IMG/VR virus record: IMGVR_UViG_3300043425_000676
Location: 1 to 64,000 of that record
DNA length: 64,000 nucleotides
From: a virus
Direction: 5' to 3' (one strand)
How positions within the stretch are numbered: the first letter of the stretch is position 1; the number at the start of each line of letters is the position of its first letter. The notes below the pieces were generated by a model that searched no databases, was not told where the DNA came from, and saw only the letters and a list, made by a program, of their open reading frames with translations. Below are positions 36,213-64,000 of the stretch, one piece after another. The position numbers were made by a program, and so were the translations under genes.

Positions 36213-36509
36213 CTACTTTTCCTTAACAAACACACCGTCTACCATCTTACCCTTGCGATCCTTGATCTGCTCCCACGCCACTTCGCGGCATTCGTCGATG
36301 TCTTGTCCAAGCTGAGCACACATCACAGCCAGTACCACCTGAATATCGCCAATCGCATCGCAGATCTCTGTGGTGTCGTTACGCAGCAAGCCATCGGACA
36401 ACTCCTGGACTTCCTCCAGAAGCTTCGACATTTGCAAGGTGGGGCTAGAACCAACCACCAAGTTCCGATCTTCCGCCCATTTCGTAACACGTTCTTTCCA
36501 ACTCAACAT
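36213..36509 (-). CDS. MazG-like nucleotide pyrophosphohydrolase
   Basis: KLLEEVQEL...DAIGDIQVVL...IKDRKGKMVDGVFVKE. Confidence 0.85.
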   Translation of the reverse strand: MLSWKERVTKWAEDRNLVVGSSPTLQMSKLLEEVQELSDGLLRNDTTEICDAIGDIQVVLAVMCAQLGQDIDECREVAWEQIKDRKGKMVDGVFVKEK

Positions 36510-36973
36510 TGAAAACCTCCAATCTGTTTCCGTCCACTTTCTAACACGCTCCCTAAACATGGCAGATCCCCTTGCGATGAATAACAGCCTTACGGAGTCT
36601 TTAGAATGCGATCTTGAAAATCAAAAGCCATCTTCAACAACTCTCGATTGCCGTTTTTTGCAGCGACAGCGATGACGCTTTGAGCGAAATCTAGTGCATC
36701 GGAAAACGCAATACGCTTCATGTCCGACTTCATTTTGCTGGCAAGACGATCAACTAGACCGCTGTCTATTTCCGACTCGTCAACAAACAACCTACCTCAG
36801 AAACGAACGGCAATTTCCAGTTCGCGAGCGCAACTCAACCGTTCTGGAGCGGTCAAATTTGATTCGCACTCAATGGTTAAGCACATGGGAAGAGTAGTCT
36901 TTGAAGCCATCTTTCCAGTCGTCGAAAAACTCAAATTGTCAATCGCATCAATAAAACTTTGACTGCTCATAGC

Positions 36974-38206: not shown

Positions 38207-39577
38207 CTATTCAAACTGAAGCATATCGCTGCTTTTGCCGACTGCCGCATCGATTCGCGCACGAGCAAGCTCGATGTATTCGGCTTCGCGTTCAATTCCG
38301 ACGAACCGAAAACCTTCAAGAATAGCTGCCTTGCCTGTGGATCCTGAGCCGGTGAACGGATCGAGAACAAGTCCGTTTGGCGGCGTGACAAGTCGGCAAA
38401 GGTAACGCATCAGGTCGGTCGGCTTGACCGTGGGGTGGACGTTCTTGCGATTCGTGACAAATCTGCTAGTTACGTCATTTCCTGTATCCCACTCTGCGTT
38501 TTCGGGATTGCGCCTGCCGGACATAGACGACGATGCTTTCGAGTTAAAAGCATCCAAGCCTTCATCTCGGTCTTTCTTGCTTGCCTTCGCGCAATAGAAG
38601 AATCTGGCTGCGCTGCCGGAATCGCCTTCATGGAATCTTGGTGTGCCAAGCGTATTTGCCGCGCTGCCATAGATTTTGTTTTCCGTTCTTGGTTGGCCCG
38701 TAAGGCTTCCGCTTGTCGTCTCAGGAAACAACGCCAGCACCTCATCACTTCCATCGTGGATGAAGTTTGCAGGGAAACGGCCCAATTGCTCAGCCTTAGC
38801 AACCGCTTCATTGCCGCGAGCCTTGCAAGCCTCGATCGCTTCGCTGTCGTGTTTCCAAGGCCTGTCCCACCCCTCTGTGGTTGTGCTGATCCTGCCGCCG
38901 CCTAGCTTGTCCCCGTTCGCCTCCACCCTACACCCATCGATATTCAACCCGCCCGTTCCGTGGGCTAGCACATTCGCGGCGACTGTTGTGGGAAAAGGCT
39001 TACGAGCCAATATGATTGGCTCGTAAGCTGGTTTGAGTGCAGTTCCCCAACCTTGCCATTGTGTAGCTGCTTCGGTTGTCGGGATTGTTGTGTAAGCGTT
39101 CCTGCCGGATTCATCACCCCAAGTGCCACCACCGTCTCGTTTACCATCTTCAAGGCGTAGTAGGCGATCACCCCCTCGTTTGAGTGGGCCGACCTGCCGT
39201 TCCGCCCCAGCGGCCTTGTCAATCGCCTTGCTCACATCCAGCGATTTCGGAAAACCCGAGCCATATACCCACATGAGGCAGTCTCTAATCTCCCAACCAG
39301 CATCCTCAATGGCGCAGGCGAGTCGGTGGTACGTCCTCGTACCACCGAACGCCAGAAGATGCGCGCCCGGCTTTGCGACCCGCAAAGCCGCTTCCCAAAA
39401 CGGCATCCCAGGTACGCCGTGATCCCACTGTTTGCCCATAAAGGCCAACCCATAGGGCGGGTCGGTCACGATTGCGTCAACCGAACAGTCCGCAAAAGTT
39501 TTGAGTACGTCTAGGCAATCGCCATGGTGCAATGTGTAGCAATTCATCAAAATGTCCCGTGTAATTGCGCTACTCAA
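38207..39577 (-). CDS. DNA methyltransferase, beta class (N6-A/N4-C)
   Basis: VTDPPY, HPTVKP, LDPFTGSGSTG. Confidence 0.92.
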   Translation of the reverse strand: MSSAITRDILMNCYTLHHGDCLDVLKTFADCSVDAIVTDPPYGLAFMGKQWDHGVPGMPFWEAALRVAKPGAHLLAFGGTRTYHRLACAIEDAGWEIRDCLMWVYGSGFPKSLDVSKAIDKAAGAERQVGPLKRGGDRLLRLEDGKRDGGGTWGDESGRNAYTTIPTTEAATQWQGWGTALKPAYEPIILARKPFPTTVAANVLAHGTGGLNIDGCRVEANGDKLGGGRISTTTEGWDRPWKHDSEAIEACKARGNEAVAKAEQLGRFPANFIHDGSDEVLALFPETTSGSLTGQPRTENKIYGSAANTLGTPRFHEGDSGSAARFFYCAKASKKDRDEGLDAFNSKASSSMSGRRNPENAEWDTGNDVTSRFVTNRKNVHPTVKPTDLMRYLCRLVTPPNGLVLDPFTGSGSTGKAAILEGFRFVGIEREAEYIELARARIDAAVGKSSDMLQFE

Positions 39578-40742
39578 AAAGAACGTTTTGTTTCAATTTA
39601 TCAGCTTTTTGTACCGCCGAATCAATTCGATCGACAGCCAGCTTGATGTACTCTGGATTCAACTCAATGCCGACGTATTTTCTGCCATTCAAGATTGAAA
39701 CCTCGCCCGTGGTTCCGCTTCCGTTAAACGGATCGAGAATAACACCACCTTTGCGGGAGCCAGCAAGGACGCAAGGCTCAATTAGCGCAGGAGGAAATGT
39801 GGCAAAGTGAGCGCCTTTGTACGGTTTTGTGGTGACAGTCCAAACGGAGCGTTTGTTTCTGCCTTTTTCTAGGTCTACCGTCATGTCCCCAAAGTCGTTG
39901 TCGTAATTATGACCCTGCATACTTTCTTTGCTTCCTCCGCCGTTTTGAGCTCTTTTCCATCGGTATTTAGCTCGCTCGTGCGTTGCTTTGCTGCATGGCT
40001 CTTTGATCGCCTCATTGTCGAAGTAGTACCTTGCCGACTTGCTCAGCAAAAAAACGTACTCGTGAGATTTGGTACAGCGATCGGTGACGCTTTCAGGCAT
40101 TGGGTTGGGTTTGTGCCAGATGATGTCTTGGCGTAGATACCAACCATCGGCTTGCAAGGCAAAAGCAACGCGCCAAGGGATGCCAATGAGGTCTTTGGTT
40201 TTTAGCCCAACAGGAGTGCCGATCCGAGGAACGCTATTCTGAGCCTCGGGGTTGTTTGCGCCAACACCAGGGTTTGTGGATTGCTGGCGATCCGCTTTTG
40301 TGCCAGTGGCATAACTATCCCCAAGATTCAGCCACAGCGTCCCGTCGTCTCTAAGCACCCTCCGGACTTCACGAAACACCGAAACCAATTTAGCTACATA
40401 GGCATCCGGTGTCGGCTCTAAACCAATTTGACTATCAACCCTGATAGCACCGCACTTGCCGCACTTATCCTTGTACGGAATCCACAAAGCGTCTTTGTCC
40501 AGTCTGCCCTCAGAAGTTCGACTCCCACCATCGCAAGCGTTTGCAGCCTCAGCAAGATTGCGCCGTTGACGAATCTCTTTTTCTCGATGATCGCAACCAG
40601 GGTCGCCACCCTCCCACTTTGCCGTCCCGTAATCGCGCAAGCCGAAATACGGAGGCGACGTTACGCAACAATCAACCGCCCCTTGCTCCATCGATCGAAG
40701 CACAGACAAACAATCACCGCAATGCAATGTGTAAGGTTTCAT
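39570..40742 (-). CDS. DNA methyltransferase, beta class (likely N4-cytosine)
   Basis: VTSPPY, WHKPNPMPESVTDR, HFATFP, LDPFNGSGTTG. Confidence 0.92.
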   Translation of the reverse strand: MKPYTLHCGDCLSVLRSMEQGAVDCCVTSPPYFGLRDYGTAKWEGGDPGCDHREKEIRQRRNLAEAANACDGGSRTSEGRLDKDALWIPYKDKCGKCGAIRVDSQIGLEPTPDAYVAKLVSVFREVRRVLRDDGTLWLNLGDSYATGTKADRQQSTNPGVGANNPEAQNSVPRIGTPVGLKTKDLIGIPWRVAFALQADGWYLRQDIIWHKPNPMPESVTDRCTKSHEYVFLLSKSARYYFDNEAIKEPCSKATHERAKYRWKRAQNGGGSKESMQGHNYDNDFGDMTVDLEKGRNKRSVWTVTTKPYKGAHFATFPPALIEPCVLAGSRKGGVILDPFNGSGTTGEVSILNGRKYVGIELNPEYIKLAVDRIDSAVQKADKLKQNVLFE

Positions 40743-42602: not shown

Positions 42603-42649
42603 ACTCGGGGGGGTTAGGCCGAGTGCGGAGGGGTTCGCCCCTCGTCCCC
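42603..42649 (+). ncRNA. Pistol-ribozyme-like core lacking P1 (copy 1)
   Basis: ACTCGG-G-GGGG-TTAGG-CCGAGT-GCG-GAGGGG-TTCG-CCCCTC-GT-CCCC. Confidence 0.7.
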
Positions 42650-42693
42650 GCTGTCGCGTGACAGCAAGCAACAACGAAACAGGAGAAACGACG

Positions 42694-42912
42694 ATGCCAA
42701 AGACCATCGACCAAACCAATCCAATCGAGCGCAATATCCGCGAAGCAATCGCCAGGATGAAGCGATCTAAGACTACTGGCGCCTCCATGGATTGCCTTTT
42801 CTTGAACACTCGTACTGCTGGCGTGACCGTGCCGGTCGGCATGTACCGTGCCGAGTTTGAGAAGCTCGCCCATCGCGTGGCAAGGGATCTGGCGTTCGAT
42901 CTTTACTGCTAG
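42694..42912 (+). CDS. Hypothetical early protein
   Basis: SD CAGGAGA; MPKTIDQ... Confidence 0.6.
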   Translation: MPKTIDQTNPIERNIREAIARMKRSKTTGASMDCLFLNTRTAGVTVPVGMYRAEFEKLAHRVARDLAFDLYC

Positions 42913-42953
42913 CAGGGGTTAGGGCTAGTGCGGCGCCTTCGGGCGCGTCCCCT
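42908..42953 (+). ncRNA. Pistol-ribozyme-like core lacking P1 (copy 2)
   Basis: GCTAGC-A-GGGG-TTAGG-GCTAGT-GCG-GCGCC-TTCG-GGCGC-GT-CCCC-T; stems covary with copy 1. Confidence 0.7.
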
Positions 42954-43019
42954 CGTCGACACTGTGTCGGCGGATCACCGCAGGCGTGAGACCCTGCCAA
43001 GCTTTCAGGAGAATTGACC

Positions 43020-44238: not shown

Positions 44239-44658
44239 ATGGAAATTAACCTAGAACAAAGACTGTACGTCATTCCATCCGGCAAGGGCTACTCGTGCTT
44301 GGGGTTTGACGTATGCGAACAGCGCAGAGTGTCTTATATGCAATGGCTTGGACTGCCCGTACAACCCGTAGAAATTGGCACGCATCACGCTTATGCGGAA
44401 TACCAACGCGCCTTGGAACTGGTGCGAATACGGTGTAACTCTCCCGGTGTTAGATGCACAGTCGAATTGGTACCTGAGTTAGTGCGGTACGAACGTCGTC
44501 GAGTCGAGGTTACTTACCCCGATGGCACGAAGACCCGCTTTATTGTTGGGGTGTCGACTGGATTTATTCCAGTTCATCTTGAAATCAAGACGCGACGATC
44601 TACCGGCGGAAGTCAAGCGTACTTCCCGCCTGGATCAACAGTACGGCTGGTGGGTTAA
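44239..44658 (+). CDS. Hypothetical early protein
   Basis: SD AAGGAG; RFIVGVSTGFIPVHLEIKTRRSTGG motif. Confidence 0.65.
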   Translation: MEINLEQRLYVIPSGKGYSCLGFDVCEQRRVSYMQWLGLPVQPVEIGTHHAYAEYQRALELVRIRCNSPGVRCTVELVPELVRYERRRVEVTYPDGTKTRFIVGVSTGFIPVHLEIKTRRSTGGSQAYFPPGSTVRLVG

Positions 44659-44663
44659 AGCAA

Positions 44664-44722
44664 GACGTTTCGCGCACGAGACCACTGGCTTGCTAGTGGT
44701 CGACTGCCTGCAGCGTCGCAGG
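44664..44722 (+). ncRNA. Unclassified pseudoknot motif (copy A)
   Basis: GACGTT...stem...CCTGC-AGCGTC-GCAGG; matches 45218-45274 with covariation. Confidence 0.6.
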
Positions 44723-44753
44723 GTATTCAAGGCTTTTAATGGAGATTTGTGTT

Positions 44754-44933
44754 ATGAAGGTGACAATCGAAAACAATGAGTTGGTTATTTGCATACCCGT
44801 TGAGAACCCTCCACGACCAAGTGCAAGCGGTAAGACCCTCATCGTAGCCACGAGCAGCGGAAATCAAACCACGGACGCAATTGTCAATGGTCAATCTGTG
44901 GTGGTCGGACTGAACGCATACATTAAGAGGTAA
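44754..44933 (+). CDS. Small beta protein (SxSGKTLIVAT family), paralogue 1
   Basis: 59 aa; 45/59 identical to 47701-47880. Confidence 0.75.
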   Translation: MKVTIENNELVICIPVENPPRPSASGKTLIVATSSGNQTTDAIVNGQSVVVGLNAYIKR

Positions 44934-44935
44934 GC

Positions 44936-45217
44936 ATGAAATACTTCATTGAGCGAACTATTGGTGCTCATTCCGACACACTCGAAAAGCTCTGGGAAGG
45001 TAATGATTTACCTTTGTTCAGCCGCAATGGACATCCGTATTGCTTCAGTTGCTACAGAGAAGCTCAAAGAGTGCTCTGGAGACTTCAAGCACGATACCCC
45101 GTAACGATCGATACTCCTAGATCACCATCTGTGCCAATTGATTATTCCTTGGAAAGCATAGACACATCGGCAGCTCAAGAGTACAGACCGCAACAACACT
45201 TAGGCATGTTTGTTTAA
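44936..45217 (+). CDS. Hypothetical protein
   Basis: 93 aa ORF. Confidence 0.5.
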   Translation: MKYFIERTIGAHSDTLEKLWEGNDLPLFSRNGHPYCFSCYREAQRVLWRLQARYPVTIDTPRSPSVPIDYSLESIDTSAAQEYRPQQHLGMFV

Positions 45218-45274
45218 GACGTTTTGCGCCTGAGGGGGCTCGCCCGAACCCCTAACGGCCTGCAACGTCGCAGG
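45218..45274 (+). ncRNA. Unclassified pseudoknot motif (copy B)
   Basis: GACGTT...stem...CCTGC-AACGTC-GCAGG, starting right after the TAA stop. Confidence 0.6.
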
Positions 45275-45301
45275 AACACAACACAACAGGAGAACAGAAC
45301 G

Positions 45302-45706
45302 ATGGCAGATCGATTTTACGGCACAGTTTATTTGGGTGGGAAGCTAACTCAAGAGCAGTTCAAGAAGTGCGAGGAATTGCTAGAGGATTGCTTGGAACAC
45401 GGCGACGAGCTAAACGAGGATGGTTCAGCGTCATTTTCCGAATGCACTAGCAGCGACTTCCAAGGCATCGTCGAGTATTGCACATCCAACGGTATCGCCT
45501 TGTCCTTGCATTGGGACGCCAAGTGGGAACAAGAAGCAAACGTGGAATACTGGATGGACGGCGAATACAAGCAGTTTTTCGCGGCTGGTGATGGAGACAT
45601 CGCCATTAGGCTGGCGGAGCTGCAAGAGCACCCCGATATGACCATTGCCGAGTTTATCGCCAAGATGCAGATTCCCGAGTTCCCAACCTTCGAAATTGCT
45701 GACTGA
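45302..45706 (+). CDS. Acidic hypothetical protein
   Basis: SD CAGGAGA; MADRFYG... Confidence 0.65.
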   Translation: MADRFYGTVYLGGKLTQEQFKKCEELLEDCLEHGDELNEDGSASFSECTSSDFQGIVEYCTSNGIALSLHWDAKWEQEANVEYWMDGEYKQFFAAGDGDIAIRLAELQEHPDMTIAEFIAKMQIPEFPTFEIAD

Positions 45707-45806
45707 TGCGCGTCGGCGACTCGAACGCGAGGGGATTGCCCGATCCCTAAGCGCCCGAGCCCCTGGCAGTCAGGATCGGTAGCATCAAACACAGGAGACA
45801 TAAGCT

Positions 45807-47700: not shown

Positions 47701-47880
47701 GTGAAAGTTACGATTGAAAACGGCGAATTGGTTATCCGCATTCCCGTGGAAAACCCACCACGACTAAGCAGCAGCGGTAAAACGCTAATTGTGGCTACCA
47801 GCAGTGGCAATAAAGCAACGGCGGCGACGGTCGACGGCAAGCCCGTTATTGTCGGACTCAATGCCTACATCGCAAAGTAG
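47701..47880 (+). CDS. Small beta protein (SxSGKTLIVAT family), paralogue 2
   Basis: GTG start with SD CAGGAG; paralogue of 44754-44933. Confidence 0.75.
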   Translation: MKVTIENGELVIRIPVENPPRLSSSGKTLIVATSSGNKATAATVDGKPVIVGLNAYIAK

Positions 47881-47955
47881 GCACGGTAAAATGATCTCAA
47901 GCCGTGTGTCAATTGTGGCACGCGGCTTTTTTGGCATCAACACATTAGGGCGACC

Positions 47956-49073: not shown

Positions 49074-49529
49074 ATGTCTAAGGATAAAATTGGCTGGTTC
49101 GATTGCATCGAGATAGCTGCGGCGATGACTCCGTTCATTGCGGTGGGTTGTGCGATCTATACGATGGCATCCCTGGATCCGATACCCGAACCACCACCGA
49201 GGGAACTTCGCGAGTCAATTGACGAGGTTGAGCCACTCGGCGAGAGGTCGTCGGCATGGTCGAGAGTAAGAGCTGAGTTCGTCGCTGAGCACCCCGACTG
49301 CGAAGCCTGCGGGAGTCGCGAGAAGCTAAACGTGCATCATATTCAACCGTTCCATATCCATCCCGAACTGGAGTTGGAGCCAAGCAATCTGATCACGCTA
49401 TGCTTTGAGCACCACTTTAAGATCGGGCATGATCCTGACGGGCCTTGGCGACCTAAGAAGCCCAAGTGGACTGCTTGGAACCCTGCGGTGAGGCAGCACG
49501 CACAGCAGATGCGAGCAAAGGTGCGATAG
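49074..49529 (+). CDS. HNH endonuclease with N-terminal hydrophobic segment
   Basis: RSSAW..VR...CEACG...LNVHHIQPF...NLITLC..HH...GH. Confidence 0.8.
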   Translation: MSKDKIGWFDCIEIAAAMTPFIAVGCAIYTMASLDPIPEPPPRELRESIDEVEPLGERSSAWSRVRAEFVAEHPDCEACGSREKLNVHHIQPFHIHPELELEPSNLITLCFEHHFKIGHDPDGPWRPKKPKWTAWNPAVRQHAQQMRAKVR

Positions 49530-58414: not shown

Positions 58415-61400
58415 TTATTTTTGATTCAATTTTTGCGTAATTTGACGCAATCTTTCGACCAAAGCGTCCTTCATCACAAGTGCCTGACCCTTGCGCTCGT
58501 ACAGGGTTTTGTTGTTCCTGCGCCAATATGCCAGCAGTAGCAGCCTTGCCTCTTCTGGCCCGATCTTGCCGTCGATCATGGTCTTAAGTGCCTTGTCTCT
58601 CTCGGCAACAGCTTTGGCGTAGGTCGTATCGTCCTGGAAGTCCTTGCGTTTTGGATTGGCTGAAGCAGAGTAGACCAGCGATTGTTTGCGTTGCTCTCGG
58701 CGTTGCTTGAATCGCTCAAGTTCATCCTTGGTCAAGAAGTCCTTGTAGCCTGGATCCTTCGAGTCCCATTCCATCGCTTCGAGATCCTTCTCGATCAGCT
58801 TTTTGCGTTCCTCTGCGTTGGCGTTCTTGTACTTGGTCTTAGGCCCATAGGTTCCACCACTCATCCCGAGAATGTTTAGCATGGCGATCGCTGGGCCTTC
58901 TGGCACACCACGAGCCATCAGCGTTTCAACGACTTCCCGTCCAGCCAGAGGGATGAACAGTCCCGTGGTAGCCGTGGCTACCGTTGCTTTGTTGCCAACA
59001 ACATCTTCTCCAGCAATGATGTTGATGCCAGCGGCGGGGATCGGTGCGAGTTTCTTGCGGATAAAGTTGGCTGTCAGATCGAACGTACTATCCTGACCGT
59101 ACTTCTTCTTCTCTCCCCGAATGTCAATAATTTCGCCTTCCATCGTCTTTTTCTGCCCAAGTCCAACTTGAGAAAGGAATGTGACGATTTGACCAAAGCC
59201 GGACAGTGGATCGATTCGCGTCTCTCCAATCTTGAGTTTCATGAAGTCCGTCGATCGCGGATCCAGTTCGACGGTTGGCGATTCCTCATCATCGTCGTCG
59301 TACAGCAATCCTCCGAGTGCCACGGCGGTTGCTAAGAATCCGGCAACACCAAGGGCGTGTCGAGCGTATTCCATGGCGATGAGCCGCTTAACCCTGCCGG
59401 AAACCTTGGCATCCTGAAGCATGTAGAACGGCAACCCTAGATATGCGAAGCGAGACGCGAGGTATCTAGGTGCGAACAAGACGGTGCTGAGGTTTGCCGC
59501 GACCTTGTTATAACTCCCGAAGTCCCCTCTACCTGTCGATACGTTGATAAAATTGGCAATCGCCTTGGCTTCGTCCAGCGTCACCTGACCGTTTGCCCCG
59601 AGGGTATCGACGAAATAGGTAAACAGCCGGAACCGCAAGCCGTTGAGGTAGGTCGTGTAAGCCCTGGCGGACATTGCCACGGGTGTCAAAACCGCCTTGC
59701 TGAACTTGTTGATCTTTGTGCCCTTCTTGCCGATGCCGTCCCTTGCCCATCGACCCATGTAGGCTTCTTCTTGGTTCTGGATCCTGCCAGCACTAGCCGT
59801 AACCTCAAGTTTGGCTTGTACCGCAAACGAATAGAGCCGGTGCTTGCTCATCTGTTCGGCGATATTAAACTCTTCCTCTTGGCTGAAGATAGCCCGTCGC
59901 ATTTCCTTTGCAGCCTCTCTGGCAAGCATTGGGTGAGCGAACGTCCCTGGGCCGCCCTGGCGGAACACCGCCGACAAGTCCATGGATGTCATAATCGCTC
60001 TTGCCAGGAATGAAGTCTCCCGAGCCCAGTCGAAGACCCTCTCTTTGGGGCTCAACTGCGACAATCGCCATTCTGCCGCCAGGCGGAAGAACTCCTCTTT
60101 TATTTCCTCAAGTCGCCTCTTGTGCTTGGTTATCTCGTCGCTTTCGAGTGGGGCTTTCTTGGGTTTTGCTCCAAAGTAGCCGTGCGCCATGCGATCTTCG
60201 TAATCCGCAATCCTGTTTTTCAGGTTGGCGATATAAGCTACCTCTGCTCGCTCTTGAGGGCTCATCTTGGGGTTCTGTTGTGCCTTAATCGCGTCTCTCT
60301 GAGCACGCAACGATTCGAGCTCTGCTTGCTTGGCTTTGAGTTCTGCGCTCGTTACGGGCTCAGCACGACCTCTAGGGGAGAAATCTCCGGTGCGGAGTTG
60401 TTCCGTAACCCTTTCGATCTCCCGATCGGTAGCCCTGAGAGCTGCTGCAAGCCGTTGCTCCTTGGTCGCTCCCTGCCGAGGAAACATCTCGCGGTAGTCT
60501 TTGGTGACTTCCGCTAGGATTCGCTTTTGCTCAGCCAAATCCTTGTCTTTGCTTGCCAAATCGACCTGCGTCTTGGTGATCGGCTTGCCTTCAGCCATAG
60601 CCTTCCGCAAATCCCTGATGCGGTTTGCCGTTGCCCGCATTGCGGCACCAATTGATGTCTTCAGGAGTCCCTGTTCATCCTCGGTGTAAAGGTTACTATT
60701 GCGCTTCATCTCGTTGACTTGTCGCACTAACGCTCGCTCATCGTCGGACATTTCGCGACGCTCGACACCCGTTGCCTTGGGTCGAATACCGGCTTCCAAA
60801 TCCTTGATCTTCGCCATTTGGAGCAACTGACCGTTGATGTCGCGTTGCAATCGCTTGTTTGCGTCTGGAGAAAGCGGGGTAAATTGCCCATATCCGGTCA
60901 GCGCGTCCATTGTCTGCCGCTCGGTGATCTCCGGGTCGATCTCCTGGAGCGATCTCCAGACGGCATCTAGGACGACTTCAACGCGATCTTCTTGATCCGC
61001 CGTGACGATTCCGCTTTCAATAATCGCCATCTCGATCTCACGGGCGATACGGGTAAGCCCCTCAACATCCCCAGGGCTGACCATCGGAATCGGGATTTCA
61101 CCTTGCGCCTTGATCTTCTCCCATGCCGTCGCAAACGCAGCCTGAGCCTGAACAGGCAGTTCGCCACCTATCTCTTTGCGCAAATTGGCTAGCAGTTCAC
61201 CGTAGGAGAATACGCCAGCTTCGACGTATGCCATGACGACACTCTCGGCTTCCTCAGCCATTCGTTCGTCTTCGGTCTGCATCAGCGTGTCAGAGCCACC
61301 CTTGGGCTTGAAGATGCTTGAGAACTTCTTGACGAAGCTCTGTACCGCCGTGGCGGCTTTTTGCCGTGGCTCGCTCTTGGTCTTGGTCTTGGGTGCTTTC

Positions 61401-64000
61401 TTCAAGTCATCGTCGACCACTTGTCGCACACCGTCTTGCCGTTGAAGGTCGGCAATCACCTGCTCGGCTTTCGCCAAGTCGCCCTGAACCTTCGCCAGTT
61501 CCGCAGCCAACTCAGCGATTTGCCTTGTCTGCTCTGCGCTAAGTCTCTCACCGCCGTTGGCAGCCCTGCCCCGACGCAACAACGCAGCACGAGAGAAATC
61601 CGATCGCAAGGTGATTTTCCTGGCTCCAAATGCCCTTGCTTGCAGGGTTCCGATCTTTTTGTCGACCTTCTCCATTTCCTCCATGGCATCCACTATCAGG
61701 TCAACTTCCCTGAGTGCCTTGGCTGCGGCAACGCTGTCTTTTCGGTCTTTGGCTGCAAACAATCGATCTTCAGCGGCTTCGCGAGCGTTTTCCAGCCCCC
61801 GGTAGTGCATTTGCAAAACAGCTACTTCAATCTGGTCTGGGGATCTCAGTTTGTCGTCCAGTTCTTTAACGAGTCGATCGCCGAGGGTAGGATCCTGTCT
61901 GAGCCTGTGCCCAGCTTCCTCCAGCCACTCATCCATTGTCTCGGATTCTGCATCCACCAGCCCTGGCGACCCTCGAAGCAGAGCCATGTAGTTCGCCACT
62001 TCGTTTTGGATGCTCGTCACTGGATTTGCAGGACGCAAGACGGGCTCGCCCCTGGAAACAGGCTCGCCGCCCTTGCCGCCACGCTGGTCGGCTGGCAACC
62101 CTCGCTGAACCAACTTGTCGAACAGATCGCGGATTTCCTTGGGGAGAGGCGTTCCGGTGATCTCTTGCACACCGCTGTAGATTTCTCGCATCCAACGGGA
62201 GATCTTTTGGAACAGCGAATCCAGGACGCTATTCGGGGAGTCACCCTCGTACCAATACTGCTCCCACATCTTGGCGGCTTTTTCTTCCGCCTTCACATCC
62301 CACTTCGTTACCCATTTGCCATTCACAAAGCTTCCAGCACCGCTCGCCTTCTCTAACGCTTCGATTTCCTCATCGGTGATGTCGGCACGCTTTTCGGCTG
62401 GCACGCTCTTGTCGAGCAGGAACAGTCGCATCGGATGGAAGAACTCGTGGATGAACGTCGAGAAGTCAGCCTTGTTTGTGGCTCCGATCAGTGCTCGATG
62501 TGCGCTGATGAACTTCGTCCAGCCCTTGACGCTGCCGCCTTGCTGTTGGTTCTGCATCAAGATGTTCGGGTTGTTCGGGTCGAACATGCCGCGATTGCCG
62601 GTGGCGGACTTGATTTGGGTTGGGCGTAACGCCACCCACACATCCTTCCCTACGCCTCCAACACCTTTGAATCGCTCGTCTTGAACTCCGTCAAAGCCAG
62701 CCTCTTCAAGCTTCTCAATGACAGCATTATTAAATTCCACCCTGTCTTCAATGCCTAAACTTACTACTTCTCTTCGGGCAGCAGCCAGATCCTTCAAGCT
62801 AGCTGGGTTTTTGACACTCAAGTAGAACGGTCTTGTTTTACCAAGAGCTAGTGCGCCAGATTCTTCAGAAGTAAACCAAAAACCCGGAGATACACTGTAA
62901 TTTGCGTCGAATACATCAAACTCTTTATCTGTTCCGTGGTAAACAACCAGAGGTTTTCCGTCCTTGTCCACCACCTTGCTATCGCCAAACCATCGCACAA
63001 AATTCTGCCATGTCGGCTTGCCGTTTGGAGCGATCTTTTCGCCCCACTTGTCTCGAGCGTATGACACGACTGCAGGGCGATAGTCGCTCTCGTTGAACTT
63101 GTATCCTGACGGTTGATCGAAATCTTCTTGTGCCATCGCCTGCCCAGGCACCGGCGTACCATACGGAGCAAACCCGATCTCATTGCGACCGAATGCCGTG
63201 ATGTCTTCGAGCGTAATTCCAGCCTCGATCTGATCATCGGACAGCACCCTACCGAACGCCCTCTTTGCCATCGTGACAACTTGGTCGCGTGTGATGCCCG
63301 AGACTGCTGCCGCCTGCTGCACACCATCCATGCCTGCGACTTCTGCCGCTAAGCGAAGGAAACGGCTCACCTGCAACGTGCGCTCGCGTCCAATGGTCTT
63401 GACCGAGTAGGCAACGAAGTCACGTAGATTGGTGATTCCAGCGTCCTGAGCGGCGATGGAGAGGTTCAACGCCTCCGACCACATATTCTCGTTTACGTCT
63501 GGTGCGGTCTGGTAAAGCGGGGGCGGTAGATTGCGCAGGTTGTCTGAAAGCTCGGCTTGATTCTTTTCGTCATTAGCAGCTTTAGCTTCAACGTATATAG
63601 GTTCTCCTTCCTCGTTCAGAACCTTGCTAGCCTCAATCGCTACAGATTCGCCGTTTTCTTCGTACAAAACGTGCGTGTCAGATCTATAGCCAGTAACAGC
63701 ATGTTCCTCGATGTCATAAGAAACATTTTCTTGCGCAGGCTCACCTGTCATTTGCTCCTTAAACATCTCTGCTTGCATGTCATCAACAGCCTGCCTACCT
63801 GAAGCACGCTTGCGCTTTCGAATATAAATTGAAGTACCGACTGGGGCTATATTCCTAAACCAAGACGGAGAGCCCTCTGGGTTTGCCTCGATCTCTGCGA
63901 CAAGCGACTTGAGTTTCTTCTGCTTTATATCAAGCTGCTCCTGTCGCACAAACGGAAGCTTTGCAGACTCATTAGCCGACTTAACAAACGCCTGCTTTTT
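58415..64000 (-). CDS. C-terminal part of a giant polyvalent ejection protein containing an ADP-ribosyltransferase-like (ART-PolyVal) domain and a HExxH motif
   Basis: Frame open to the window end; NFVRWFGDSKVVDKDGKPLVVYHGT...GFDGV...QIKSATGNRGMFDP; ADFSTFIHEFFH; long helical C-terminus. Confidence 0.85.
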   Translation of the reverse strand, partial: KKQAFVKSANESAKLPFVRQEQLDIKQKKLKSLVAEIEANPEGSPSWFRNIAPVGTSIYIRKRKRASGRQAVDDMQAEMFKEQMTGEPAQENVSYDIEEHAVTGYRSDTHVLYEENGESVAIEASKVLNEEGEPIYVEAKAANDEKNQAELSDNLRNLPPPLYQTAPDVNENMWSEALNLSIAAQDAGITNLRDFVAYSVKTIGRERTLQVSRFLRLAAEVAGMDGVQQAAAVSGITRDQVVTMAKRAFGRVLSDDQIEAGITLEDITAFGRNEIGFAPYGTPVPGQAMAQEDFDQPSGYKFNESDYRPAVVSYARDKWGEKIAPNGKPTWQNFVRWFGDSKVVDKDGKPLVVYHGTDKEFDVFDANYSVSPGFWFTSEESGALALGKTRPFYLSVKNPASLKDLAAARREVVSLGIEDRVEFNNAVIEKLEEAGFDGVQDERFKGVGGVGKDVWVALRPTQIKSATGNRGMFDPNNPNILMQNQQQGGSVKGWTKFISAHRALIGATNKADFSTFIHEFFHPMRLFLLDKSVPAEKRADITDEEIEALEKASGAGSFVNGKWVTKWDVKAEEKAAKMWEQYWYEGDSPNSVLDSLFQKISRWMREIYSGVQEITGTPLPKEIRDLFDKLVQRGLPADQRGGKGGEPVSRGEPVLRPANPVTSIQNEVANYMALLRGSPGLVDAESETMDEWLEEAGHRLRQDPTLGDRLVKELDDKLRSPDQIEVAVLQMHYRGLENAREAAEDRLFAAKDRKDSVAAAKALREVDLIVDAMEEMEKVDKKIGTLQARAFGARKITLRSDFSRAALLRRGRAANGGERLSAEQTRQIAELAAELAKVQGDLAKAEQVIADLQRQDGVRQVVDDDLKKAPKTKTKSEPRQKAATAVQSFVKKFSSIFKPKGGSDTLMQTEDERMAEEAESVVMAYVEAGVFSYGELLANLRKEIGGELPVQAQAAFATAWEKIKAQGEIPIPMVSPGDVEGLTRIAREIEMAIIESGIVTADQEDRVEVVLDAVWRSLQEIDPEITERQTMDALTGYGQFTPLSPDANKRLQRDINGQLLQMAKIKDLEAGIRPKATGVERREMSDDERALVRQVNEMKRNSNLYTEDEQGLLKTSIGAAMRATANRIRDLRKAMAEGKPITKTQVDLASKDKDLAEQKRILAEVTKDYREMFPRQGATKEQRLAAALRATDREIERVTEQLRTGDFSPRGRAEPVTSAELKAKQAELESLRAQRDAIKAQQNPKMSPQERAEVAYIANLKNRIADYEDRMAHGYFGAKPKKAPLESDEITKHKRRLEEIKEEFFRLAAEWRLSQLSPKERVFDWARETSFLARAIMTSMDLSAVFRQGGPGTFAHPMLAREAAKEMRRAIFSQEEEFNIAEQMSKHRLYSFAVQAKLEVTASAGRIQNQEEAYMGRWARDGIGKKGTKINKFSKAVLTPVAMSARAYTTYLNGLRFRLFTYFVDTLGANGQVTLDEAKAIANFINVSTGRGDFGSYNKVAANLSTVLFAPRYLASRFAYLGLPFYMLQDAKVSGRVKRLIAMEYARHALGVAGFLATAVALGGLLYDDDDEESPTVELDPRSTDFMKLKIGETRIDPLSGFGQIVTFLSQVGLGQKKTMEGEIIDIRGEKKKYGQDSTFDLTANFIRKKLAPIPAAGINIIAGEDVVGNKATVATATTGLFIPLAGREVVETLMARGVPEGPAIAMLNILGMSGGTYGPKTKYKNANAEERKKLIEKDLEAMEWDSKDPGYKDFLTKDELERFKQRREQRKQSLVYSASANPKRKDFQDDTTYAKAVAERDKALKTMIDGKIGPEEARLLLLAYWRRNNKTLYERKGQALVMKDALVERLRQITQKLNQK

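Follow-up and report, generated by a model that had tools for sequence, protein, structure and literature searches.

A conserved pseudoknot RNA family in the intercistronic gaps of a phage accessory operon, with a tentative role in punctuating polycistronic mRNA

The stretch of DNA described here (the window) comprises positions 1 to 64,000 of IMG/VR virus record IMGVR_UViG_3300043425_000676, a 72,061-bp record rated complete. Two intercistronic gaps of an accessory operon in the window hold copies of an RNA motif, here called type A, which on comparative grounds is a real and strongly supported RNA family with no Rfam entry. Its predicted structure is a compact H-type pseudoknot in which a 5' strand pairs with the loop of a 3' hairpin, with a second hairpin, carrying a purine-rich 3x3 internal loop, lying between the two. 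We tentatively suggest that type A is a cis-acting punctuation or processing pseudoknot of polycistronic phage mRNA, a reading that we favor while placing it a little short of an even chance.

The two copies (Table 1) were first picked out by an initial annotation made from the sequence alone, and both were recovered on the plus strand at the positions given there. A pattern combining the elements of the motif matched the whole 72,061-bp record twice in the forward direction, with no match in reverse and none in a backwards control. Exact matches to the 16-nt 3' block occur at the two copies only; with up to three mismatches allowed the number rises to 5, where 1.31 would be expected, and three of the 5 are both sites read on the opposite strand and one unrelated site. 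The 14-nt 5' block gave 18 matches against 14.97 expected with up to three mismatches, and zero mismatches at both copies only. The annotation's further claim, that this is an unclassified RNA, is supported by a search with 4,227 Rfam models, radC and STAXI included, which gave no match at the gathering score across the 64-kb window. At E ≤ 10, the sole match in positions 44500 to 45450 was Rubella_3, at 15 bits on the minus strand, which we judged to be due to chance.

The annotation had proposed a covariance-model search for more copies, and the search yielded 35 distinct full-length copies, in related phage contigs. Pattern scans of a viral collection, together with one metagenome scan and one genome scan, returned many chance matches, which were sorted by script, and a covariance model (R1) was built from 12 copies. 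Applied to whole records, the model matched 3 times in the window's own record and 4, 1, 5, and 3 times in four related records, with up to five matches within 3.5 kb of one phage, of which four are full-length type A. Searching entire related contigs with the model brought up further diverged copies in additional loci. The final alignment contains 64 matches in 41 distinct rows, and the 35 type A copies are what remains after subtraction of 4 rows of a relative, type B (described below), and 2 partial rows. All true members lie in related phage contigs. Viral scans in which the hairpin stem was freed added no hairpin variant (2 of 9 and 5 of 10 stretches were true members), and the metagenome scan, also with the stem freed, gave at least 124 matches in the loci examined; among the matches listed, 19 rows had 5/5 stem complementarity, 17 of these being true members, as was one 4/5 row. 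It was the model searches of whole related contigs that provided the hairpin covariation reported below. From the genome collection, only one of the 32 matching stretches was a true member, a 9-kb contig (L246) in a bin labelled Crocinitomicaceae, which carries the whole operon with type A, RadC, DUF7227, and the type B and class 2 elements discussed later. We doubt that the bin label names the host, in view of the strong GGAG ribosome-binding sites throughout, and one contig is too little to name one.

Complementarity is conserved across the 41 rows: 95.7% of cells are pairing, compared with 78.9% in column shuffles (none of 500 reached the observed value) and 34 to 49% when partners are slid. 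Changes on both sides are seen in 13 of the 17 pairs, and an earlier 35-row set gave the same pattern. All five pairs of the pseudoknot ACGUU:AACGU change on both sides, with CAGU:ACUG, ACAGC:GCUGU, GGC:GCC, UAGC:GCUA, and AGAUU:AAUUU among the replacements; so do all three pairs of the P2' helix, and four of the five pairs of the variable stem, P3'. The 3' hairpin stem has one covarying pair out of four, U-A becoming C-G in four rows, which carry different pseudoknot sequences, and the same pair position is left unpaired in four rows. Comparison thus supports both of the helices that cross. Three of the four helices were part of the model used to fit the alignments and are favored by it, the hairpin being outside the model; RNAalifold run on a plain MAFFT alignment recovered the outer helix, P2', and P3' unaided.

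Several finer points of the initial annotation can be judged against the alignment. The loop of the 3' hairpin had been described as pairing with GACGTT over six positions; the pairing itself is well founded, but it spans 5 bp (ACGUU:AACGU), and a sixth G:C pair is available only where position 4 is a G (22 of the 35 copies). A fully paired 6-nt hairpin loop should be sterically possible, as in the pistol structure and in loop-loop kissing complexes. The reported covariation of CA/TG with CC/GG is confirmed at N16:N'46, which is A-U in 17 rows, C-G in 10, G-C in 10, U-A in 2, and unpaired in 2 of the 41. The tandem GA/RA internal loop said to be kept is indeed nearly constant, and has been lost in one copy (L283:2951-3019). 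Its bases are among six unpaired positions conserved at 91 to 100%: Y11 (35/35), G12 (32/35), G18 (34/35), A19 (34/35), A44 (35/35), and Y59 (35/35), whereas the neighboring proteins are merely 62 to 83% identical for most genes and loci. The helices contain G.U pairs on the plus strand, as in a P3' base pair that is G-C in 32 rows and G-U in 8, and there are three wobble cells in the pseudoknot. The longest uninterrupted type A helices are 5 to 9 bp, and the GC content of the copies is 0.58 to 0.69.

A weaker signal concerns the G after the 3' hairpin, which covaries with the linker base C13 (C-G in 29 rows, A-U in 2; mutual information, 0.59). The alignment columns involved (13, 60, and 76) correspond to window positions 44673, 44707, and 44722 in copy 1. 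In one copy (L283:6769-6832) the same G covaries instead with the last P2' base (U...A), and the junction could form an extra pair or alternative pairings.

The motif had also been said to follow stop codons, and the family bears this out. In 33 of 39 distinct rows, an open reading frame of at least 39 codons ends 0 to 7 nt before the pseudoknot strand; the other six rows have shorter open frames or none, at least two of them being matches that begin right at the edge of the locus. Downstream of the element, at 11 to 20 nt, most rows have a GGAG-type Shine-Dalgarno sequence and then a start codon. The window's operon runs from about 42.1 to 51 kb on the plus strand, as do all genes flanking the motif, and encodes a RadC-like JAB protein, DUF7227, an acetyltransferase, an HNH endonuclease, and many small family-less proteins. 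Apart from the HNH endonuclease, at 49074-49529, no RNA-binding or nuclease protein was found in the operon by Pfam or PHROGs, and a protein-cluster atlas search of the operon proteins returned unnamed clusters only.

A read-through or frameshift signal was considered and rejected: no slippery site was seen, and after copy 1 there is an in-frame TAA, with the next gene out of frame. After copy 2 the reading frame stays open into the next gene.

The arrangement of the gap, a post-stop intergenic site whose spacer is rich in C and poor in G, is similar to that of lambda nutR, which raises the alternative of a transcription signal (terminator, antiterminator, or promoter). We consider it highly improbable: the element has no U-run, a consensus scan of 9.5 kb placed no promoter-like or terminator-like site at it (1 promoter-like site against 6.9 expected and 14 terminator-like sites against 11.2 over the region), up to five copies per operon would be odd for antitermination, and the varying length of P3' would break promoter spacing.

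Other gaps of the same operon contain a different element, which we call class 2. The copy at 42604 begins 1 nt after the TAG stop at 42600-02 and matches the Rfam Pistol model (RF02679) at 20.3 bits, below the gathering score of 34.5, over model positions 24 to 68, a stretch that comprises P2, the UUAGG junction, the pseudoknot strand, GCG, a variable P3, the 2-nt GU, and the P2 return strand. This match, at 42610-42649, is the sole Pistol match at E ≤ 10 in the whole record. Altogether, 11 Pistol matches to class 2 at 18.5 to 32.9 bits were found in four of five records searched, none over the cut-off, the partial ones scoring 18.5 to 24.2 bits and one copy aligning with the full model at 32.9 bits; 8 of 14 control genomes also give some match at E ≤ 10. 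The loci examined (L279, L281, L283, and L287 included) hold 34 distinct class 2 copies, with up to five per locus. UUAGG, GCG, and GU are kept in all 34, partly by construction, since the parser required TAGG, GCG, and GT, while the pseudoknot is formed by 10 different complementary 5-mer pairs and P2 occurs as two compensated variants. A single nucleotide separates the pseudoknot strand from the P2 that follows, and the strand is not enclosed by a P1 stem. We judge class 2 to be a pistol-type core in an undescribed form, with predicted activity only; it indicates that pistol-like cores without P1 exist below the Rfam threshold.

Class 2 and type A can replace one another. After the orthologue of a 143-residue gene, the window has the class 2 copy at 42604, and three other phage loci (L048, L140, and L222) have type A; since an orthologous gene is followed by either element, the two share the same slot. 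Beside class 2, at 0 to 3 nt after it, we also observed a hairpin whose stem covaries and whose loop reads approximately ACWGU, located in the window at 42650-42676 and 42955-42972 (plus strand) and present after most copies elsewhere. It is possibly a stand-in for the missing P1 or a protector of a new 5' end.

The presence of pistol-type cores in the operon bears on the suggestion of the initial annotation that type A loosely recalls a rearranged pistol, which holds for part of the structure. Both RNAs have a short hairpin with a 6-nt loop forming a pseudoknot of 5 to 6 bp (in type A, a 4-bp stem with five loop bases pairing, as expected of a pistol P1 hairpin), and in both, Y-G and then a hairpin helix come after the partner strand. 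Both are also about 60 nt in size and lie in phage intergenic regions, and it is pistol-core elements that fill the equivalent gaps of the type A operon. The order of the parts differs, however. The type A hairpin is at the 3' end, that of pistol at the 5' end, and the type A pseudoknot partner lies outside the left junction of P2 and P3, 4 nt to the 5' side of the P2'/P3' hairpin as a whole. As its left junction type A has only a 3-nt YGA and as its right junction a 3-nt RAN without GU, and the helix 3' of that junction runs directly into the 3' hairpin. A closing P2 helix, the UUAGG junction, and the 2-nt GU cleavage junction are all missing from type A, which gives no Rfam Pistol match at E ≤ 10. 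The two features that define pistol in the accessible part of Harris 2015, a pseudoknot partner in the left junction and a 2-nt GU right junction with P2, are therefore both absent. A circularly permuted pistol was rejected as well, there being no way of opening and rejoining a pistol that yields the type A strand order; the naturally permuted ribozymes named in the accessible part of PMC10085705 are hammerhead and twister only, with no permuted pistol among them. By its predicted architecture, type A is not a pistol but shares one module with it.

Comparisons between phages place the element at the boundaries of exchanged genes. A gene of the family to which the 59-residue gene following copy 1 belongs is found downstream of six unrelated upstream genes, and the same upstream gene has differing downstream genes across phages. 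Pairwise identities drop accordingly at the element: for L003a and L048a they are 97% upstream, 92% in the motif, and 60% downstream; for L003a and L183b, 62%, 100%, and 98%; and for L140a and L183a, 97%, 100%, and 63%, with unrelated sequence scoring about 57 to 60% by this measure. Homology between phages ends at the element, with breakpoints on either side of P3', so that in some pairs the variable stem accompanies the upstream gene and in other pairs the downstream one. As the stem can go with either neighbor, exchange has therefore taken place in either conserved block, and it looks like homologous exchange at short conserved sequences rather than site-specific recombination. A conserved RNA fold at the exact points of gene shuffling suggests how accessory genes, possibly counter-defence genes, trade between phages.

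Promoter/stem-loop regulatory cassettes are known at the module junctions of T4-type phages and are likewise short repeated elements between small accessory genes at points of gene shuffling; type A differs in having no promoter or terminator consensus, a covarying RNA pseudoknot being conserved instead.

The breaks in homology could alternatively reflect a site that works as DNA, either in cassette recombination (an integron attC-like site or folded single-stranded DNA) or as a palindromic protein operator. Small co-directional genes each followed by the element form a cassette-like array, the 3' block is near-palindromic and matches itself on the minus strand with 2 to 3 mismatches, and the phage encodes Erf-like and exonuclease recombination proteins plus a serine recombinase. 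We nevertheless find a DNA site very unlikely. The breakpoints flank the variable stem on both sides and define no single crossover point, the loop variants covary with the distant 5' strand and in doing so lose the palindrome, no integron-type tyrosine integrase was found in the Pfam and PHROGs annotation, wobble pairing is specific to one strand, and the element keeps strictly to the interval from stop codon to Shine-Dalgarno sequence. The palindromic operator and the attC-like site were both rejected. In an integron attC site the variable part moves with the upstream cassette only, crossover occurs at one point, and an integron integrase is encoded close by, whereas here the variable stem travels both ways and the only recombinase of the site-specific kind found is a serine recombinase.

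We favor punctuation of the mRNA because of position, multiplicity, strand, conserved unpaired bases, and interchangeability with a pistol-type element, taken together. The initial annotation had left the role as a candidate ribozyme or regulatory RNA, and a regulatory or processing RNA fits the intercistronic context. In the early operon of phage T7, RNase III processing hairpins lie between genes, where they cut and stabilize the polycistronic mRNA; like type A they are repeated structured elements placed directly after one cistron's stop codon and ahead of the ribosome-binding site that follows, but they are long irregular double-stranded hairpins without a pseudoknot, whereas type A has crossing helices and conserved unpaired bases. 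Type A would act on the plus-strand RNA, in the untranslated gap between cistrons of a mosaic accessory operon, directing site-specific processing of the long transcript or defining stable ends. Each small gene cassette could then be expressed from its own insulated mRNA segment, uncoupled from its neighbors, and the same role would be expected of the pistol-like elements in the other gaps. As a by-product, the invariant 5' and 3' blocks may serve as short homologies for cassette exchange between phages. Processing of polycistronic transcripts has been proposed as a role for bacterial and phage ribozymes (review PMC6765202, accessible part). Should type A process the transcript, the operon would show, in compact natural form, how a DNA phage can punctuate its mRNA cistron by cistron with small RNA folds exchangeable between slots; the role of small ribozymes in phages would become testable, and new short insulator parts would be at hand for synthetic biology.

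The most specific candidate mechanism for such processing is self-cleavage, which is plausible although we lean against it. A cleavage route through a host or phage nuclease is less favored than self-cleavage and, in our estimate, improbable. Type A is a fair ribozyme candidate and would be new among structured intercistronic phage RNAs, but we find it doubtful that it represents a novel class of small self-cleaving ribozymes, or a pistol rearranged in some non-circular way, with P1-loop pseudoknot and Y-G junction retained and cleavage at a different site. Were that the case, these phages would possess a natural "ribozyme-punctuated cassette array": two or more ribozyme architectures would change places between intercistronic slots and double as recombination linkers.

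A number of observations weigh against these proposals. Folding of single sequences barely improves on shuffles (z = -1.26 and -1.85 for the two copies, with 20 and 9 of 200 shuffles folding equally well); single-copy folding is thus unconvincing, and the case for the motif is therefore comparative, not thermodynamic. No cleavage site can be named in type A, where the GU junction and P2 of pistol are absent. The 3' hairpin stem is near-invariant, two of its four pairs never varying, which fits sequence-specific protein recognition as well as it fits catalysis, and recognition by a nuclease or another protein explains the invariant hairpin equally well. Class 2 stays below the Rfam Pistol threshold (32.9 bits at best against 34.5) and is without P1; as P1 is reported to be important for pistol in the accessible part of Harris 2015, the activity of class 2 is not assured. 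Candidates found beside ribozymes often fail to cleave: ten other candidate motifs assayed in PMC10085705 did not, and PMC6765202 states that "additional RNA structures did not cleave," both according to the parts of these papers that were accessible.

Protein recognition could also be the whole function, with type A an operator for a phage or host RNA-binding protein that binds the invariant hairpin and the GA-rich loop and controls translation of the downstream gene through the CA-rich spacer and Shine-Dalgarno sequence. The operator of T4 gene 32 provides a precedent (PMC10690425, accessible part), being likewise a pseudoknot followed by an unstructured spacer and a ribosome-binding site. 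It is a single autoregulatory site for one gene, whereas type A occurs in many copies before unrelated genes. The near-invariant hairpin stem, the conserved purines of the internal loop, and the fixed, short distance to the Shine-Dalgarno sequence would suit an operator, and a binding protein might be sought in the 59-residue family, which is encoded directly after many copies and duplicated in the phage: the genes at 44754-44933 and 47701-47880 (plus strand) are paralogues, 76% identical, the first directly following copy 1. This family is widespread in phages without annotation, was found by tblastn in 14 of 36 loci of the motif family, and has an all-beta AlphaFold model. Yet that model is unreliable (predicted local distance difference test score, 60.5), the protein belongs to no family, no RNA-binding domain was found in any neighbor by Pfam or PHROGs, and the element is interchangeable with a pistol-like one, stands upstream of many unrelated genes, and has lost the GA loop in one copy. 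We therefore rate an operator as unlikely.

The relationship to pistol allows a further alternative, in which type A is a degenerate pistol-like relative that has lost its cleavage module and is kept mainly as a stable structured spacer, blocking exonucleases or protecting against Rho loading or RNase E, and as a stretch of homology for recombination. The hairpin-loop pseudoknot and Y-G common to both RNAs, the absence of P2 and GU, and the GC-rich, compact fold all agree with this, as does type B, a relative that dropped the pseudoknot entirely. Type B (Table 1) shares with type A a core of P2', internal loop, and P3' at 45726-45753, but its outer helix is nested and its 3' hairpin separate, and the wider family thus includes members without the pseudoknot. 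The window copy scores 15.6 bits against R1 (E = 0.09, model positions 15 to 44) and homologous copies in other phages 23 to 27 bits; other sites are in L123 and L124 and at L140:3904-3957, L196:2024-2077, and L246:7289-7342, and in other phages type B is often upstream of a homologue of a 142-residue gene. A passive barrier, on the other hand, has no need of six unpaired positions conserved at 91 to 100% or of an invariant hairpin while the other helices vary freely, and we think a degenerate spacer decidedly unlikely.

The company that type A keeps also permits it to be a decoy or inhibitor RNA against host defence, made in many copies from an early counter-defence operon. Several copies per operon, the RadC-like JAB and DUF7227 genes beside them, and, elsewhere in the genome, an 1844-residue protein of the "polyvalent protein" kind (58418-63949, minus strand; ART-PolyVal ADP-ribosyltransferase domain, E = 3.6e-20) would be in keeping with this. 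No resemblance to a known decoy or repeat came to light, no search aimed at one having been made, the copies are embedded in mRNA gaps and form no tandem array, the argument is purely contextual, and we regard a decoy as far-fetched. Among the published RNAs that our literature search covered neither the type A motif nor a P1-less pistol was found described; type A might be listed in the catalogue of candidate phage RNAs that supplements PMC10690425.

Table 1. Positions of type A, its relative, the class 2 elements, and the flanking gene signals in the window
Feature	Positions	Strand	Details
Type A copy 1	44664..44722	+	Sequence; covariance model R1, 69.6 bits, E = 1e-14; pair counts
Copy 1 pseudoknot 5' strand	44665-69	+	
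Copy 1 linker	44670-73	+	UCGC
Copy 1 P2'	44674-76 with 44705-07	+	
Copy 1 internal loop	44677-79 / 44702-04	+	CGA / GAC
Copy 1 variable stem P3'	44680-44701	+	
Copy 1 3' hairpin stem	44708-11 with 44718-21	+	
Copy 1 hairpin loop	44712-17	+	44712-16 pair with 44665-69 (one G.U pair)
Type A copy 2	45218..45274	+	Sequence; covariance model R1, 78.4 bits, E = 8e-17
Copy 2 pseudoknot 5' strand	45219-23	+	
Copy 2 linker	45224-27	+	
Copy 2 P2'	45228-30 with 45257-59	+	
Copy 2 internal loop	45231-33 / 45254-56	+	UGA / AAC
Copy 2 variable stem P3'	45234-53	+	
Copy 2 3' hairpin stem	45260-63 with 45270-73	+	
Copy 2 hairpin loop	45264-69	+	
Stop codon before copy 1	44656..44658	+	TAA of 139-residue gene (phrog_10759); 6 nt before copy 1 pseudoknot strand
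Gap after copy 1	44723..44756	+	Spacer, GGAGA Shine-Dalgarno sequence, ATG (44754) of 59-residue gene
Stop codon before copy 2	45215..45217	+	TAA of 93-residue gene; 1 nt before copy 2 pseudoknot strand
Gap after copy 2	45275..45304	+	CA-rich spacer, GGAGA, ATG (45302) of 134-residue gene
Type B relative	45707..45790	+	After 134-residue gene, between TGA stop (45704-06) and next Shine-Dalgarno sequence/ATG (45807)
Class 2 element	42604..42649	+	Pseudoknot strand CUCGG, 1 nt, P2 GGGG, UUAGG, CCGAG, U, GCG, P3, GU (42644-45), CCCC
Class 2 second copy	42909..42952	+	TAG stop (42910-12) inside pseudoknot strand CUAGC; GU at 42947-48

Some further features of the window were recorded in passing. 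After the second of the two 59-residue genes, at 47895-47935 (plus strand), six T follow a GC-rich inverted repeat, an arrangement that by eye resembles an intrinsic terminator inside the plus-strand gene block and is absent from the list of sites returned by the consensus scan. Two adjacent DNA methyltransferase genes lie at 38210-40742 on the minus strand (phrog_67, E = 6e-75 and 3e-83), and a MazG-like pyrophosphatase is encoded at 36216-36560.

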